28,920 nucleotides of DNA, from positions 1 to 28,920 of IMG/VR virus record IMGVR_UViG_3300037524_000136; one strand, 5' to 3'. This document shows, in pieces, positions 1,734-27,632 of this stretch. The stretch's first letter is position 1. Each line of letters opens with the position of its first letter. The position numbers and the translations under genes are program-made. The notes under the pieces are model-generated. The model made no database searches. It was given only the letters and a program-made list of their open reading frames with translations, and was not told where the DNA came from. This DNA comes from a virus. Lineage: Duplodnaviria > Caudoviricetes.

Positions 1734-2947
1734 TGGCTTGTTCCCTTTCCCTGCGCGATGTTGCGCAGCGCCTCTCCACTTTGCCGGCTGGAACTCGACG
1801 AGCCGAAGAAGTAGCTCACCACTTGCCCCAGCATGGCGATTGCCGCGCCGACGATCAGGCCGCGCGTCGTCTGATCCGTTGTCGCAAGCTCGGCCAGCCG
1901 CCACAACATCCACCCGGCGCCAACGATGATCAGGATCGACAGCAGCCCGATCAGCGCGCCGAAGCCGATCCCGGCCCAGCCTTCCTTGCCCAGCATCCGC
2001 TCGCCGAAGCCGCGCGCGTCGGCTACGCTCTTTTCGCCCCGCTCCCAGTTGGCGGCGTCCTGCTCCTTGGCATAGGCCAACAAGTCGAAAAACTGCGACC
2101 GCAGCGCATCCTCTGCCTTCCTAGCTGCCGCCGGGTCCTGCTGGATGATCTCGACCGCCTGTTGCTGATTGACGGCGCCCACCGTCGTCGCAACCACGTC
2201 CAGCACCTTGGATGCGACGTTGATGTTCTGCGTGGCGGTACTCTGCGTTTTGTCGCCCTTGATCTGCGCGATGACAGGCAACACGGACGCCGCGGCTTGG
2301 ATAAGCCCGAGGATGATGGCAGGGATAGGCATAGGCGACTCCTTCGGTGGTTCCTGCGGCGCGTGGCCGGTCGACGGCGTAACGGCGTCCAGCGTGCGAT
2401 CTTCGATAGGCGCGGCGGGCTGGATCAGGTCTGCGTTGGATAGCCAACCGCCATACTGCAGGAAAACTGCCCGCAGCTTGTCGATCGTCGTTGTCGGCTG
2501 GCCGTAGCGCCCTGGCGGGAAGCTCGCCCACTCAAACGAGCATAGGGTCACGGCGCGCTCGAGGTCGCCGTCGATCACCGCCTGGAGTGCTCCGCGACGG
2601 CGAATGCACCACACGCAGAACGCATCCTGCGTCGACTGGTCGAACGGCATCGCCTCGACCGGCACGCCTAGGTCACGACAGAAATCGCCCCAGGTATCGG
2701 TCTGCACTCGCCCCGGAACCGCGCACATTGCTTGATAGGCCCCTGCGGCGCTCGTATAGCCCCAGGGTGACACTTTGGCGATGCGCGGGTGGCAGGATAG
2801 GTCGGTGACCTGTTCGCCGCCGTAGAGCGTCCTGTAGGCGCTCCCGTCGTCCTTGTTGTTGGATTCCGCGCTACGGACGCAGCGGGCGAACGCCTGGACG
2901 TTTGGATGCTGAAATTGCGCCTTCAGACCTTCCAGAGTGAGGGTCAT
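1730..2947 (-). CDS. Endolysin (lambda R-type lysozyme/transglycosylase) fused to a C-terminal holin-like membrane domain
   Basis: N-terminal NVQAF...AE...Y.TLYGG, SAAGAYQ, TW, QD...IRRRGAL..V..GD...A......EWASFP..RYGQP are lambda-lysozyme motifs. C-terminus has two hydrophobic helices ending VVSYFFGSSSSSRQ, seen in phage holin-like proteins. Confidence 0.85.
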   Translation of the reverse strand: MTLTLEGLKAQFQHPNVQAFARCVRSAESNNKDDGSAYRTLYGGEQVTDLSCHPRIAKVSPWGYTSAAGAYQAMCAVPGRVQTDTWGDFCRDLGVPVEAMPFDQSTQDAFCVWCIRRRGALQAVIDGDLERAVTLCSFEWASFPPGRYGQPTTTIDKLRAVFLQYGGWLSNADLIQPAAPIEDRTLDAVTPSTGHAPQEPPKESPMPIPAIILGLIQAAASVLPVIAQIKGDKTQSTATQNINVASKVLDVVATTVGAVNQQQAVEIIQQDPAAARKAEDALRSQFFDLLAYAKEQDAANWERGEKSVADARGFGERMLGKEGWAGIGFGALIGLLSILIIVGAGWMLWRLAELATTDQTTRGLIVGAAIAMLGQVVSYFFGSSSSSRQSGEALRNIAQGKGTSQ

Positions 2948-2980
2948 GGGTGTAGGATCAGTTCTTTAGGAGCAGCGATC

Positions 2981-3178
2981 ATGCCGTCCTTTAAGGTTAG
3001 GCCCGCGCACCTGTCGCCAGAACACGCCAAGCAAGCGGAGCGGTTCACCGGCTATCCGCATGACCCCGTCGGTGACGCCGCCGGGAAGTCATGGGCACTG
3101 TTCAAGCAATACGAGCATCAACTGCACGCTAGTCATAACTCGGCTCGCCATACAGCTTCCCGTAAATCGAAGCGATAA
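2981..3178 (+). CDS. Possible small antisense protein (65 aa)
   Basis: TAGGAG at 2967-2972, ATG at 2981. Fills the gap between the endolysin and the 515-aa gene and overlaps the latter's 3' end by 50 nt. Confidence 0.45.
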   Translation: MPSFKVRPAHLSPEHAKQAERFTGYPHDPVGDAAGKSWALFKQYEHQLHASHNSARHTASRKSKR

Positions 3179-22288: not shown

Positions 22289-24565
22289 TTATTGAATGCC
22301 GACGATGCGACCATCGGGTGCGCGCACCACTGGCCGTCCGTTCATGCTCACTACCAGCCCGTCGTTGCCGTACTCGAGCGTCTTCGGCTTGTTGAGCTCG
22401 GCGCGCACCATCGCCATGATCTGCTCGGCCATCGGCGCGATCGCCTGAGACACGATCTGCTCCATCTCGCCACGCTGCTTGAACTCGACCGGCTTCTCGA
22501 GCAGCATGCGCACCTGCTCCAGCAACGCCGCCGTCTTGTCTCTTTCGCTTGCCATCGTGATCTCCCGCGTGTCATCGGCGTTCTGCGCGTCGAGCGCCAA
22601 GCGCAGCCGCTCCGTTTCGGCCTCGAACTCCTTGACCTTGACCTCCTGCGCCTTGATGGTCGTCTCTAGCGTCTTGACCTGCGCGTCCTGGGCGTTGATC
22701 GTGCCCTGAGCCTTGGCGGCGTCCAGCGCCAGTTGCGATCGCATCAGGTCGGCCTGCATCTTCTGCAGTTGCTGATCACGCTGCTGCAGCGCCTGCCCCA
22801 TCTGGGCGATCTGCTGCTGCCCCTGCTGGATCTGCTCTCTCAGTTGCGGCGGGATGTTGTCGCCACCGAGCATCTGCTGCCACTCGGTCGCCAGCGACTC
22901 GGGGATCGGCAGGTACTTGAGCACACTGGGCGGCACCGGCATGCCCATCTTGAGCGCCGCGGGTAGGAACGCCTGCAGCGTCTCGAAGGTCTGCTGCTTG
23001 ACGTTCACGCTGGCCGGCGCGCTATCGACGATCACGTCGTACTCGAGCGTCTCGTCCATCTGCACCAGCGGCGCATACTGCGGGCCGTTCTCGGCGTCGA
23101 TGCGGATCAAGCGCCCGTCGGCAAGGTATTTCTGGATGAACTGGTAGAGCATCCGCCCGTGCTCGCGCCGATACGCGCGCAAGGCGTCGAACCAGCCGGC
23201 CAGGATGGTCAGCGCCGCCTGCTTGCGTTGCGACTCCAGCACGCCGGCCTGCTGCCGATCGGCGAGGCCAAGGATCTCCAGATTGACGCCGGTCACGTCG
23301 CGGATGGAACTCACCGCGAACTGCATCAGGTTGTCCAGCCCGGCCGGATAGGTGATCGGGGCTCGCTGCTGGATTTTGCCGATGCCGCCAGGGGACGCGC
23401 GCACCCATGCGTCGGGCTTGGCCCATTCCTTCTTGGCCTCGCCGGGATTGTCGAACGCGCCGGCCTCCCAGATGATCCCGCCCTTGGCGTTGCTGTTGAT
23501 GATCGACATGATCTGACTGAGCCACTTGTTAGCCCAATCCTGCGGATCCTTCATCGACCGCACCAGCCCGTAGAAAATGCGCTCGTTCCTGTCCCTCACT
23601 CCGGTGATGAACTTGTAGCTCGAGCCCGTATCGCACGGCGCGGGCCCGTCGTCGAGCAGCACCTCGCCGCAGACGATCGCCCGTCGCCATGACCACTTGC
23701 GCGCCTTCACTGCCCGGGGCGGAGGCACGCCGGTAGCCTGCATCGCCTTGGTGATCTCGGCCCAGCGCTTGACATCGACATCGACCACCTTGCCGGTCTG
23801 CGGATCCAGCACCCGGTAGTAGGTCTGCGGCTCGCGCCACTCGCACTGGATCAGGCGGTACTCGTTGGTGCGCGGCCGATAGTGCGCGTTGGTATCGTCC
23901 TGGTAGTCCTGCTCGTTGGCGTCGACCGGGCTTGACGGCTGGTCGGCGCCGCGCGACTCCTGGGTAAGCTCGCCGGCCTGCTCGGGCCACTCCTCTTGCA
24001 GGTCGGGGCCGCTGATCCAGCGCTCGGCGATGACGTAGCGAGCATCGACGAAGTTACGCTTGCGGCTGGCCGGGTCGGCGTAAACCTCAAGCGGATCCTG
24101 GCGCTCGATTTCGATGTCGCCATCGGGGTTGCTGGCGTAGCTGACACGGGTGACGGTGCAGCCGATGCCGCAGATCAAGCTGTCGCGGAAGGCTTCGTTT
24201 TCCTCGATGTCGGCGTTACTGCGATCGCGCACCCAGGCAGCGGCGCTGTTGAGCAGCGTGGCCACGCCCACGTCCTCCATGCCGCGCGGCTGGTACTTGA
24301 TCGCCTGCCGGTTCTGCGCTTCGCTGCCGCAGACGGCGTCGATGGTCGGCGCGACCCGGTTGAACGTCACCGGCGGCCGGCGTTGCTGCTTGAGAAGCTC
24401 GAGGTCGTCCTCGTCCCACTGCCGGCCGGCGACGATGTCGTAGGATTGTCTCGCCTCGGTGCGCCAATCAGACCAGTGGTCGCGCACTTCCTTCCAGCGC
24501 TTCTGCACCAGTGCCACCACCTCGTCGGGGTCGCGGGTGTACTCGTCCTTTACACGCTCATCCAT
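22289..24565 (-). CDS. Portal protein, P22-like, with long C-terminal coiled-coil barrel (758 aa)
   Basis: W..EA...Y....G.QW, RPP.TFN...P.ID.V.G.E.QNR, AF.D..ICG.G, YGLVR.MKDPQ...NK..S, YDV.VD..P.S. Gln-rich coiled coil at the C-terminus. Follows TerL. Confidence 0.92.
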   Translation of the reverse strand: MDERVKDEYTRDPDEVVALVQKRWKEVRDHWSDWRTEARQSYDIVAGRQWDEDDLELLKQQRRPPVTFNRVAPTIDAVCGSEAQNRQAIKYQPRGMEDVGVATLLNSAAAWVRDRSNADIEENEAFRDSLICGIGCTVTRVSYASNPDGDIEIERQDPLEVYADPASRKRNFVDARYVIAERWISGPDLQEEWPEQAGELTQESRGADQPSSPVDANEQDYQDDTNAHYRPRTNEYRLIQCEWREPQTYYRVLDPQTGKVVDVDVKRWAEITKAMQATGVPPPRAVKARKWSWRRAIVCGEVLLDDGPAPCDTGSSYKFITGVRDRNERIFYGLVRSMKDPQDWANKWLSQIMSIINSNAKGGIIWEAGAFDNPGEAKKEWAKPDAWVRASPGGIGKIQQRAPITYPAGLDNLMQFAVSSIRDVTGVNLEILGLADRQQAGVLESQRKQAALTILAGWFDALRAYRREHGRMLYQFIQKYLADGRLIRIDAENGPQYAPLVQMDETLEYDVIVDSAPASVNVKQQTFETLQAFLPAALKMGMPVPPSVLKYLPIPESLATEWQQMLGGDNIPPQLREQIQQGQQQIAQMGQALQQRDQQLQKMQADLMRSQLALDAAKAQGTINAQDAQVKTLETTIKAQEVKVKEFEAETERLRLALDAQNADDTREITMASERDKTAALLEQVRMLLEKPVEFKQRGEMEQIVSQAIAPMAEQIMAMVRAELNKPKTLEYGNDGLVVSMNGRPVVRAPDGRIVGIQ

Positions 24566-26922
24566 GATCCCTCAGTCGCGGCTCGGCGCCCGTAGCGCTC
24601 GCGGCGCTCGGTCGGCTGGTGATAGGTGCGCAGTCCCTGCCCGAACAGGCGCGTGGCGACGTACTGCAGGGCGTCGTGGCAGTTGCCCACCAGGACGCCG
24701 GCAGCGTAGAAGCAATGTGCGTCTTCTACGGTCAGGTCATATACGCGCGCGCATGGCGCGCTGACGTAGCGCTTCTCGACAAGCGACGGTCCCGCAGGAC
24801 CGGGTCTTACTGTAGCGGTTGACGGTGAAGGCGGCGCCGCAAACGGCACATGTTCGCTGCTCGTCATCGACTCCGCTGGCTCGCCGCGCCGCAGATTGGC
24901 AGGCAGGAGAGCAGAAACCGCGCCTCGCAGTACCGACCAAAGCCGCGTACCTCTTCCCGCAGTGGGCGCACTTCCTGCGCTCTGTTGCGCGCCCGTCCCA
25001 GGTCGCCTTGCCGTGTTCGCGGTGCCACTCGATACCTTGTGCGGAACCGTGCCACGCACTAGCCGCGGGCCGAATTTGCTCCATGTGACGCTTGGCGAGG
25101 TCCGATCCCTTGGGAAGTTTCTCCCGGCCATGCTTGCCAGCGTGATCGCCGCCGGCCATGCACTCGAGGTTAGCGATGTCATTGTTGCTACGGTCACCGT
25201 CCCGATGGTGTATGTGGCAACCGTCGGGAATTGGCCCGTGATGAAACGCCCAAACGACGCGATGCATGTACTCATTGTGCTTGCCGCCGCGGCCATCGCC
25301 CTTGTAATAGCCAGGCGGCTTGCGGTAGTACCTGACGCCGTTGAACTCCTGCACCGGCCACTTGCTGGGTCGTACCATGTTTTCTCTCCGATGGATAACA
25401 ATACGTCATCGTATTGTAACGCATCGGCCAACACAATGCCCCTGCTGGTATGTATCGGGTGGTCCTTGGTGCACACAAACCCGCGCCCGGTGGAGAACGA
25501 GAGGTCGATCAGGTCGCCGGCCACGCTCGACATCGTCGCGGTGATCCGCTTCGCCCCTGCCGGCGTCAGCACGCGGTCGCCAACGCGCAGGGTTTCGATG
25601 CCGCGCTCGCCCTTGGGCGTCGCCACCATCGTCCCGGCGACGAAGCAATGGGACCAGGCGTTCTTCTCGGGCTGGTCGGTGTACCGCTCGGCGGAGGTTT
25701 GCATCCGCGCATAGCGGTAGCGGCCCAGGAAGCCGCGCCTGAGCGTTTCGCAGCGCGGGTGGAGGGCGAAGGTGGGCTTGCCCTCAGCCAGCGTCCCCAG
25801 TGGCCGTTTGACGCTCTCCAGGCGCATCGCCAAGTCCTGCTGCCCGGCGCTGATCAGGATGCCCTTGGCCTGCAGGATCTGGAAACAGGTCTTCTCGTCG
25901 GTTTGGGCGCGTTGCTCGCCGGCCGGGTCGCCCACGTCCTCGCACTTGGCGCCGGGGTAGCGCTCGGCCATGCGCTGCAAGACGCGATCGGAGAAGCGAT
26001 CGATGCCGACGTTGTCGGCGACGAGCTCGTCGAACACGAGCCAGCGCCCGGATGCGGTCAGGTGGCTGAACACGCACGCTGGGGTGAGCCCGAAGTCCCA
26101 GCCGCGGTAGACGGTGGCGCCGGGGATGAACTCGGCCTTGTCGGTGCAGTGCGTTTCGTCGAGGTACTCGGGGAAGACCGGCTTGCCGTCCTGGACGTAG
26201 CCGTAGCGGCCCTCGACGTGAACGCGGCACCAATCCACCGAGTTGATGGCGGTGAGCCCTTCGTAGTAACCCGGCTTTAGGTTGGGCAGGTTTTCCGCGC
26301 TAGGCGCCAGACCCGAGGGTTGCCGGAACAGAGCCACGTTGGGTGGCTTGTCGATCTCGAAGAGCTTGAACCACCAACTATCGTCACTCGGCGGATTGGT
26401 ATCGAGGATGAGGCCCGACCACAGGGCCCCGCCGTCCTGCTGGCGCGGGAAGCGCCCGCAGCGGCCGTAGAGCGCCTGCACGATCGCCCAGTCGATCTCG
26501 CGCGCCTCGTTAATCCACGCGCCGGTGAGCTCGAGCGAGAGCAGGTTGCCGACCTGATCGGGGCGGTCGAGGGCGCGGAACATGATCTCCGCTTCCACGT
26601 CGTTGACCTTGAGCAGGAAGGTGTGATCGTTCGCGCGCCACTCGCCGAGGATGCCCGGCTGCAGCCACTGGTGCACGGTCTTGATCGTCGTGTCGCGCAG
26701 TTGCGGGTAGCTGTTGCGGACGCACGCCCAGCGGGTGCGGCGCACGCCATCCCGCCCAGGCGGCTGGGCGATGGAGCGGCGAAGGATTTCGATGACGCAG
26801 CCGCTGCTTTTCCCACTGCCGAACGGTCCAAGAAGACCGCGGATCTCGGCGTTGCTACGGGCAAAGTCCCGAATGGTGGGAACTGGCCCGTAGCTGTAGC
26901 GGACGCCGAGGTCAGGCTCCAT
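24550..26922 (-). CDS. terL: Terminase large subunit, intein-containing (790-aa precursor; 468 aa after splicing)
   Basis: Walker A GPFGSGKS, Walker B AWINEARE, motif III DTNPP, nuclease GWDFGLTPA and GDPAG, and the C-terminal KNAWSH|CHDALQY motif split by the intein. Confidence 0.95.
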   Translation of the reverse strand: MEPDLGVRYSYGPVPTIRDFARSNAEIRGLLGPFGSGKSSGCVIEILRRSIAQPPGRDGVRRTRWACVRNSYPQLRDTTIKTVHQWLQPGILGEWRANDHTFLLKVNDVEAEIMFRALDRPDQVGNLLSLELTGAWINEAREIDWAIVQALYGRCGRFPRQQDGGALWSGLILDTNPPSDDSWWFKLFEIDKPPNVALFRQPSGLAPSAENLPNLKPGYYEGLTAINSVDWCRVHVEGRYGYVQDGKPVFPEYLDETHCTDKAEFIPGATVYRGWDFGLTPACVFSHLTASGRWLVFDELVADNVGIDRFSDRVLQRMAERYPGAKCEDVGDPAGEQRAQTDEKTCFQILQAKGILISAGQQDLAMRLESVKRPLGTLAEGKPTFALHPRCETLRRGFLGRYRYARMQTSAERYTDQPEKNAWSHCFVAGTMVATPKGERGIETLRVGDRVLTPAGAKRITATMSSVAGDLIDLSFSTGRGFVCTKDHPIHTSRGIVLADALQYDDVLLSIGEKTWYDPASGRCRSSTASGTTASRLAITRAMAAAASTMSTCIASFGRFITGQFPTVATYTIGTVTVATMTSLTSSAWPAAITLASMAGRNFPRDRTSPSVTWSKFGPRLVRGTVPHKVSSGTANTARRPGTGAQQSAGSAPTAGRGTRLWSVLRGAVSALLPANLRRGEPAESMTSSEHVPFAAPPSPSTATVRPGPAGPSLVEKRYVSAPCARVYDLTVEDAHCFYAAGVLVGNCHDALQYVATRLFGQGLRTYHQPTERRERYGRRAATEGSWMSV
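24682..25647 (-). mobile_element. Intein in TerL (aa 426-747, 322 aa)
   Basis: Block A CFVAGTMVATPKG..IETLRVGDRVLT, block B CTKDHPI (TxxH), block F VYDLTVEDAHCFYA, block G GVLVGN followed by +1 Cys. Confidence 0.93.
24737..25378 (-). CDS. HNH homing endonuclease with two C-terminal Cys4 zinc-finger-like motifs (213 aa), nested out of frame inside the intein
   Basis: HRVVW..HHGPIPDG..IHHRDGDRSNNDIANLEC....H (HNH_3-type). CAHC...FCSPAC and CAVC...CGTVAC. Own RBS GGAGAG-AAAAC-ATG and TGA stop. Confidence 0.92.
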   Translation of the reverse strand: MVRPSKWPVQEFNGVRYYRKPPGYYKGDGRGGKHNEYMHRVVWAFHHGPIPDGCHIHHRDGDRSNNDIANLECMAGGDHAGKHGREKLPKGSDLAKRHMEQIRPAASAWHGSAQGIEWHREHGKATWDGRATERRKCAHCGKRYAALVGTARRGFCSPACQSAARRASGVDDEQRTCAVCGAAFTVNRYSKTRSCGTVACREALRQRAMRARI

Positions 26923-27169
26923 CGATCACGATCGATATCTTGGCGCCGTTCTGGCCGGTGAGCTCGGTGCGGCCGAGCTTGGGGACGTGGTACTCGATCG
27001 CGCGCAGGTAGAGGTCCATCTTCTTGGCCGGGTCTTCGATCGCGTCGAGCCATTCGCCCATCTTGTGCACGTTGGCGGACGCGAAGGCTGCGATGGCCTC
27101 GCGCACGTCGACGGTTGCTTTGTTGGGCGTTCCTTTGGTTCGACCGCCCGCTTTGAATCCGCGTGGCAT
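26912..27169 (-). CDS. terS: Terminase small subunit-like protein (85 aa)
   Basis: GGRTKGTPNKAT N-terminus, EY..PKL...ELTG..G..I C-terminus. Directly upstream of and overlapping terL. Confidence 0.75.
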   Translation of the reverse strand: MPRGFKAGGRTKGTPNKATVDVREAIAAFASANVHKMGEWLDAIEDPAKKMDLYLRAIEYHVPKLGRTELTGQNGAKISIVIDGA

Positions 27170-27190
27170 GACTATTGCCGACTAGTTTGG

Positions 27191-27259
27191 TCAGCAGCCC
27201 CTGCCCTTGCCGGGTTGCTTTTTCCCGGGCATGGGCGGCGGTCCTTTTTGCTTTTTCAT
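27191..27259 (-). CDS. 22-aa basic peptide MKKQKGPPPMPGKKQPGKGRGC
   Basis: Hand-translated. TAGGAG-CAGAGG-ATG provides a good RBS. Lies just upstream of terS. Confidence 0.5.
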   Translation of the reverse strand: MKKQKGPPPMPGKKQPGKGRGC

Positions 27260-27314
27260 CCTCTGCTCCTAGGGCTGAACTGGAGCGGAGAGTAGTGCGG
27301 GGGAATTGCTTTTG

Positions 27315-27632
27315 CTAGGCGGCGGATGGCTGCTTTTTGTTGCGCGGCGAGGCGTACTCGCCGGCATAGGCGGAGAGGATGTCGTCGGCCACGTCCTCGA
27401 GGATGGCGCGGCGGTCGTAGATGCCGACGAGGATGTAGCGGAATGAGTCGTTCCACCACTCGGGGAAGTCGATGCGGTGGGCTGGGGTGACGCGGCGGAT
27501 GACGAATTCGCCGTTGTGCCAGAGGATGGCGTGGGGGGCGCGGTACTTGGTGATCTTGACCATCATGGCCCGGGCGACCGAGCGGGCGAACATGGGGGTC
27601 ACGGCCTTGGAGTCGTTGACGACCTTGGTCAC
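27315..27632 (-). CDS. Hypothetical protein (about 105 aa)
   Basis: 3' half of the 216-aa track ORF. GTG 27632 forms a GTGA overlap with the upstream stop. LVGIYD motif. Confidence 0.6.
   Translation of the reverse strand: MTKVVNDSKAVTPMFARSVARAMMVKITKYRAPHAILWHNGEFVIRRVTPAHRIDFPEWWNDSFRYILVGIYDRRAILEDVADDILSAYAGEYASPRNKKQPSAA

Follow-up and report, generated by a model that had tools for sequence, protein, structure and literature searches.

The window analysed here is the 28,920-nucleotide stretch at positions 1 to 28,920 of the IMG/VR virus record IMGVR_UViG_3300037524_000136, one 28.9-kb contig from a GC-rich phage whose portal, capsid and ejection genes are P22-like; nearly identical DNA is present in wetland metagenome runs. 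All features described below lie on its minus strand. The large terminase gene terL (24550..26922; phrog_2, E 2e-25) is an open reading frame (ORF) for a 790-aa precursor composed of a 425-aa N-extein, a 322-aa intein and a 43-aa C-extein, with a spliced length of 468 aa. The intein (terL aa 426-747; 24682..25647) is inserted between the His and the Cys of W-S-H|C-H-D-A-L-Q-Y and thereby splits the TerL nuclease motif H|CxD. It carries the features of a class 1 intein (C1...GN|C), namely Cys1, the TxxH of block B (T-K-D-H, 25459..25470), block F (VYDLTVEDAHCFYA, 24703..24744), a terminal Asn and Cys+1, and Hint/intein profile matches in Pfam and PHROG searches are confined to its two ends. Canonical bifunctional inteins carry an in-frame endonuclease domain between blocks B and F; none lies there in the window. 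The intein frame is also uninterrupted, unlike that of fractured genes, in which two ORFs surround the nuclease.

A second gene, encoding a 213-aa HNH endonuclease and recognised from its ORF, its Pfam and PHROG matches and an AF2 model, lies entirely within the intein (24737..25378). It starts at terL offset 1544, i.e. at offset 2, which is the -1 frame ('frame 3'). A Shine-Dalgarno (SD) sequence, GGAGAG (25384..25389), stands 5 nt ahead of its ATG, and its TGA stop is formed across the Tyr and Asp codons of block F (GTA TAT GAC), a position shared by 37 of the 102 relatives with an embedded HNH gene that remain after removal of 90% duplicates. A first-pass annotation of this DNA had already reported the -1-frame ORF in a contiguous TerL intein with these coordinates and lengths, as well as the SD-led start and the block F stop, and all of them were reproduced; its description of the intein-frame linker as rich in Ser, Thr and Ala also agrees with the composition over the overlap (33 Ala, 28 Thr and 28 Ser).

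The nuclease core (aa 37-74; 25157..25270) matches Pfam HNH_3 (PF13392) with E 1.4e-17 and 63.5 bits, against a cut-off of 24.8, and the ORF as a whole matches the HNH family phrog_15471 (E 1.5e-37). Residues H39, H57, H58, N66 and N70 of the core are invariant in 16 relatives, as are C137, C140, C156 and C160 of a first zinc finger (24899..24970); a second one (C177, C180, C195 and C200; 24779..24850) is missing in some relatives. The AF2 model of the protein has a mean pLDDT of 90.6, a single-sequence model of the intein being uninformative (pLDDT 36.6). Foldseek returned no match to the HNH model at E 0.001. The top match among solved structures is the intron-encoded I-HmuI (PDB 1U3E), at weak scores (E 0.007 and 0.06): both have an N-terminal HNH_3-type core, and the window protein differs in its C-terminal part, which consists of the two zinc fingers. 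The preserved core residues and the mobility of the family (see below) suggest that the protein is an HNH_3 (I-HmuI-like) homing endonuclease.

Two compensating assembly frameshifts in an ordinary intein with an in-frame HNH domain would produce the same picture, and the first-pass annotation had asked that such indels be excluded. A second assembly (L001/L018) aligns to the window with no gap and, over terL, no mismatch, and Logan contigs of the runs X1, X3 and X4 span the intein piecewise, without a gap or a differing letter; X1 and X3 may be the source of the window DNA itself. The layout also recurs in four cultured phage records and in 93 of the 114 matches listed, none of which has the HNH in frame. 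The family data thus refute an assembly artefact, to which we give practically no credence.

Relatives retrieved by protein search show the same frame pattern at 33-56% identity. A DNA pattern for one HNH motif, blind to context, retrieved at least 120 viral loci and 34 genome loci, and from that one motif we estimate a total of about 460 IMG/VR stretches. Layouts were counted over the 114 matches listed that have flanks; 40 viral loci with a length of about 640 bases (L183-L222) do not enter this count, and L010 and L195, being incomplete, were left out as well. A contiguous intein with a -1-frame HNH was found at 93 of these loci (91 classified, plus L131 and L227 by manual reading), and at three (L106, L113, L117) the HNH is in the other shifted frame. 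The intein is split around the HNH at four (L123, L152, L157, L249); nine copies are free-standing, with one further locus lacking a profile match, and the remainder comprises one locus with a single stop (L230), an odd intermediate (L111) and two incomplete loci. HNH domains in frame with the splicing blocks occur in 0 of the 114 matches listed, and a protein search, weak for this purpose, found no longer in-frame fusion proteins. The homologue check proposed in the first-pass annotation therefore came out in its favour, and its description of a two-frame composite element, with the HNH as a separate gene, fits a layout in which both frames are open and which recurs across the family. The cultured carriers are Tetrasphaera phage TJE1, Highwayman, phiCDHM19 and Rhodobacteraceae phage LS06-2018-MD07, and all four records annotate terL only across the HNH region. 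The carriers are diverse: N-exteins match a PHROG large terminase in 93 of the 98 tested (three of the other five are BLAST-similar to those 93; L134 and L149 are unplaced), and median extein identity across the family is only about 16%. One embedded member (L002, 2300-3187) has a tandem-duplicated N-terminal nuclease domain, and its 402-aa intein is still open.

Selection was measured in 10 disjoint pairs, out of 19 pairs at 70-99.5% nucleotide identity. Over the overlap the HNH frame has a median dN/dS of 0.18 and the intein frame one of 1.37, the HNH frame being lower in 10 of 10 pairs, and substitutions at HNH codon positions 1, 2 and 3 number 162, 119 and 377. Purifying selection in the HNH frame only, as the first-pass annotation had predicted, is therefore what these family pairs display over the overlap. 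Outside it, the first 65 intein codons, which belong to the N-terminal splicing half, have a pooled pN/pS of 0.21. The out-of-frame HNH layout is thus real, widespread in phage terL and under selection at the level of the family.

The embedded class is stop-free by definition, so the openness of the intein frame has to be set against chance. Synonymous resampling of the HNH gene predicts 4.5 stops in the intein frame and 15.8 in the other frame, and leaves the intein frame open in about 1% of resamplings for the family and about 4% for the window; it is therefore the family evidence, not the window, that exceeds chance. The equivalent frame is open in 0 of 12 free-standing copies, and Met followed by K, N, T, I or M, which forces a stop, occurs at 0 of 147 positions in embedded members (33 expected) versus 17 of 65 in free-standing and split ones. 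The -1 frame is favoured because the HNH protein puts three to four times fewer stops into the resulting intein frame, and the roughly 16 stops that the other frame would carry account for the 93:3 frame bias. The three contiguous inteins in that other frame (L106, L113, L117) have to avoid about 11-15 expected stops.

Near-identical inteins with sharp borders occur in divergent terL genes, which points to homing and bears out the mobility suggested earlier. The inteins of L086 and L089 are 98.5% identical in nucleotides, against 51-64% in the more distant flanks and 41% in amino acids in the N-exteins; those of L143 and L144 are 99.7% identical, and L251 and L246 share 80%, with exteins at 32% aa. 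Cys, Ser or Thr at +1 was found in 0 of 67 intein-less terL relatives, which have mostly Pro, Val or Ile there (Cys stands at +2 in five of the 67), and intein-less joints in the runs X1 and X4 have Val and Pro at +1. Homing into such alleles would thus need co-conversion of the +1 codon. The same loci bear on a different role for the nuclease. HK97 gp74 (cited in PMC10448857) is an HNH packaging cofactor of terminase, and the family, almost always within or adjoining terminase genes, might have been domesticated in the same way instead of serving homing. A cofactor should keep a fixed partner, but none of the 67 intein-less terL loci has an HNH match in the fetched flanks (0/67), loss and decay of the HNH are tolerated, and the near-identical elements with sharp borders move between divergent terL genes. 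We consider domestication for packaging quite unlikely.

The position of the intein within TerL is well defined. Insertion is at the C-terminal TerL motif, with an Asp two (49 members) or three (41) residues into the C-extein and absent in 12; two neighbouring insertion sites one codon apart (H|C-x-D and H-x|C-D) are interleaved on the HNH tree. In the window, Cys+1, His and Asp+3 occupy 24673..24681, and the alignment of the relative L005 with the solved terminase 5oe8 at a QNDH-xx-DA motif suggests that this Asp is a metal ligand of the terminase nuclease. In the G20c terminase, H427 and D429 are described as catalytic (PMC5389553, as far as its available text goes). With the intein at the equivalent of this His/Asp pair, the unspliced precursor is likely inactive. 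By comparison, the portion of Kelley 2016 (PMC5050341) at hand assigns the terminase intein sites of mycobacteriophages, seven of seven, to the ATPase domain. Purifying selection on the N-terminal splicing half and the downstream Asp suggest that the intein splices; Cys1 is present in 102 of 102 embedded members, the +1 residue is Cys in 94 and Ser in 8, and the intein ends in HN in 66, SN in 18 and GN in 4. A group I intron gave no Rfam match at gathering score in the window or in six loci. Several terL relatives (L051, L052, L080, L083, L084) have about 1 kb extra in the N-extein region, probably inteins at other sites. Around terL in the window, a P22-like portal gene (22289..24565; Pfam P22_portal, E 3e-110) overlaps its end, and an 85-aa ORF without Pfam or PHROG match (26912..27169) overlaps its start and may, from its position, encode the small terminase.

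How the HNH gene might be expressed is suggested by a signal that the first-pass annotation lacked altogether. Upstream of the HNH, within the final codons of the N-terminal splicing half, family members have -35/-10-like boxes: a promoter score of at least 8 is reached in 58 of 102 members, whereas two sets of control windows reach it in 4 of 102 and 6 of 99 cases, respectively; the score exceeds synonymous resampling in 85 of 102 members. Among the 74 sites scoring at least 6, 21 end exactly 6 nt ahead of the start (7 have no start called), and an SD is found at 0 of 25 near-start sites versus 29 of 42 farther ones, which points to a leaderless and a leadered mode. Two of the other-frame inteins (L113, L117) have strong TTGACA-18-TACAAT sites. 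In the window, a putative sigma70-type promoter, TTGTGT-17-TACGAT (25408..25436; score 8.0), lies in intein codons in the same register as in L013 and L168. In the long terL transcript, an RNA hairpin (25388..25427) is predicted to cover the -10 box of this promoter together with the first two bases of the SD, with folding z-scores of -4.09 on 78 nt and -2.15 on 106 nt; before the start of SD-led members, z falls below -2 in 12 of 28 versus 1 of 28 controls. The HNH could instead be made by -1 ribosomal frameshifting as a TerL-IntN-HNH fusion, and its frame is indeed open for 9 codons upstream of the ATG in the window and for a median of 16 upstream of the profile start. However, only 4 of 102 members have a slippery heptamer, the window has none, and the start is conserved, with an SD or a leaderless -10 box, which makes frameshifting highly unlikely as the source of the protein.

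Taken together, we consider it likely, with good confidence, that the window carries a homing terL intein with a separately expressed, out-of-frame HNH nuclease. Several points weigh against this: (i), the penultimate intein residue in the window is Gly in place of the usual His; (ii), the nearest non-identical relative of the window HNH is at 53% aa, and with no close relative the selection and homing results apply to the family, not to this copy; (iii), at deep distance, Mantel correlations of the HNH with the exteins (rho 0.29) and with the splicing domain (0.25) are not separated; (iv), the promoter weights are E. coli values, and promoter p-values are inflated by the relatedness of the sequences; (v), the window promoter is weak (per-sequence p 0.11 alone), and a strict sigma70 scan of 24400-27400 found 0 sites; (vi), accessibility of the window SD hardly differs between the long and the short transcript (0.59 vs 0.62, a comparison confounded by length). 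As to the first point, a penultimate His is common in class 1 inteins and not universal. Some of these points would also fit a window copy that splices and no longer homes, its decay barely begun or its promoter degenerated: the promoter is weak, decayed relatives exist (L017, L098, L099) and no relative is close enough to form a pair in which selection on this copy could be gauged. Against this, none of the invariant HNH and zinc-finger residues has been lost, the ORF is undamaged along with its SD and start, and GC3 over the overlap is higher in the HNH frame (0.71) than in the intein frame (0.64). We regard the loss of homing as unlikely.

We thus propose the following for the homing intein and its separately expressed nuclease. 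The terL mRNA would yield the 790-aa precursor, from which the intein, with a 200-aa junk loop, would splice out and restore the H-C-x-D motif. The HNH would be expressed from the sigma70-type promoter embedded in the final codons of the N-terminal splicing half, with an SD in the window or a leaderless start in many relatives, and the hairpin may damp its translation from the long mRNA. In a co-infecting phage or prophage whose terL lacks the intein, the I-HmuI-like HNH would then nick or cut this gene near the insertion site, and repair would copy the intein, probably together with the Cys+1 codon, which close intein-less alleles lack. It is tempting to join these elements into a broader reading, which we put forward tentatively and to which we would grant a little under an even chance as a whole: an intein with a three-layer code, a packaging-independent nuclease, cycling states and import of Cys+1. 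The intein codons for [VL]D-x5-D-I-[IL] would double as a sigma70 promoter, the HNH would be read one base out of frame with its stop often supplied by the block F codons, and expression of the nuclease would not depend on the late packaging operon. The family, in all kinds of terL, would cycle through contiguous, split, decayed and escaped free-standing states, and non-permissive terL alleles would be converted through the imported Cys+1. If true, this would offer a living series for inteins that gain and lose homing endonucleases.

Relatives in other states exist. At seven loci (L008, L093, L097, L123, L152, L157, L249; L093 is Lactobacillus phage CL2 and L097 Vibrio phage 1.238.A) the terL intein is split, the HNH lying between its two parts, and all seven are candidates for natural trans-splicing inteins. 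In L017 (2912-3403) an internal HNH deletion leaves nearly a mini-intein, and L098 (phiCD119) and L099 (BL3) are decayed copies with broken frames. Placing the 13 free-standing copies on the HNH tree takes 12 changes, of which strong branches force at least 6; resolution of this quick tree is poor, with 19 of 125 branches at 95 or above, and it is unrooted, with a root for drawing only, so that it does not fix the order of events. In L105, L247 and L111 the HNH is followed by a second version of the terL 3' tail and stands between two versions of it, as it does at the protein level in L239; L111 also retains a remnant resembling IntN, and its intein-equivalent frame is open over 362 codons. 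For these copies, repeated escape from the intein is thus at least as likely as repeated entry. The origin proposed in the first-pass annotation, in which a free-standing HNH would have invaded a mini-intein, is one possibility; the free relatives are scattered on the HNH tree, and some show signs of derivation from the embedded form. Free-standing copies in L102 (Salmonella phage Shemara, 2471-3061) and L092 (BP10, 2483-3124) lie antisense between the terL and portal genes, or ahead of terS. In L100 (Exiguobacterium phage vB_EauM-23, 2204-3177) the C-terminal terL motif (CDATRY...) follows the HNH without intein halves; its flanks might be an intron, with no Rfam match at gathering score.

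The first-pass annotation could not verify any description of this architecture in an intein, and it turns out to have been described. The consulted part of Tevdoradze 2015 (PMC4422536) reports an intein-encoded HNH gene out of frame within brucellaphage terL, and the record of Brucella phage Tb (JN939331) annotates both genes (ORF07/ORF08). The Tb/Pr element shares with the window the TerL host, a contiguous class 1 intein and a nested, same-strand, out-of-frame HNH with zinc fingers. However, the intein of Tb is inserted in the ATPase half of TerL (at RAD|C...N|CVIIDD, read here as the Walker B region) and the window intein in the nuclease active site; the Tb HNH is in the +1 frame with the zinc fingers first and a PF01844 core last, whereas the window HNH is in the -1 frame with HNH_3 first, and the two proteins share only 27% identity over 56 aa.

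Gosselin 2025 (bioRxiv 10.1101/2025.01.02.630785), as far as its main text goes, describes frame-3 EndoVII-like homing endonucleases in actinophage inteins, and antisense LAGLIDADG and VSR-like nucleases in inteins as well. The likeness extends to a same-strand frame-3 nuclease in a contiguous intein with an unstructured in-frame linker; the entry of a free nuclease that this text proposes as the origin, with evidence for continued transfer, matches the invasion model of the first-pass annotation. Compared by description, those inteins differ from the window nuclease, which has HNH_3 and zinc fingers and no EndoVII Pfam match at E 0.1, and of the 28 phage records matched by an actinobacterial member of our family, 0 are of Gordonia phages. 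The words 'promoter', 'start codon' and 'leaderless' are absent from that main text.

In the fractured genes of Dassa 2009 (PMC2677866), according to the portion consulted, a free-standing endonuclease lies between the halves of a split intein; it has its own start and a 3' overlap with IntC, as here, and at the junction of blocks B and F a hairpin and a promoter precede it, which are predicted here too. The seven split relatives named above share this organisation in two halves. Those nucleases are described as GIY-YIG or Vsr-like with a T4-late promoter, whereas here the nuclease is an HNH, the promoter would be sigma70-like and the intein frame is read straight through. ShiLan (Arsenault 2025, PMC11855218, in the part available) has an out-of-frame HNH insertion in a phage methylase: again a frame-3 HNH with zinc fingers, about 200 stop-free dual-coding codons and a suggestion of leaderless initiation, but without a splicing domain, in another host gene and with a central HNH.

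A literature search that did not cover subscription journals found no paper on a nuclease-site HNH_3 intein family or its promoter. The layout is already published, in few cases and without mechanism, as far as the consulted texts go; the family has another type of nuclease and another site, and compared with the Brucella element its frame is different too. To these systems it adds scale, with 102 non-redundant members and four cultured phages without HNH annotation, evidence for selection and homing, putative signals for expression and a set of contiguous, split and free-standing intermediates. Gene callers miss such nucleases, and 'mini-inteins with long linkers' may be mobile. The model in which a free nuclease enters an intein, stays out of frame and later fuses or splits now becomes testable, and the lack of any in-frame member among those found suggests that the out-of-frame state is stable rather than a brief intermediate.

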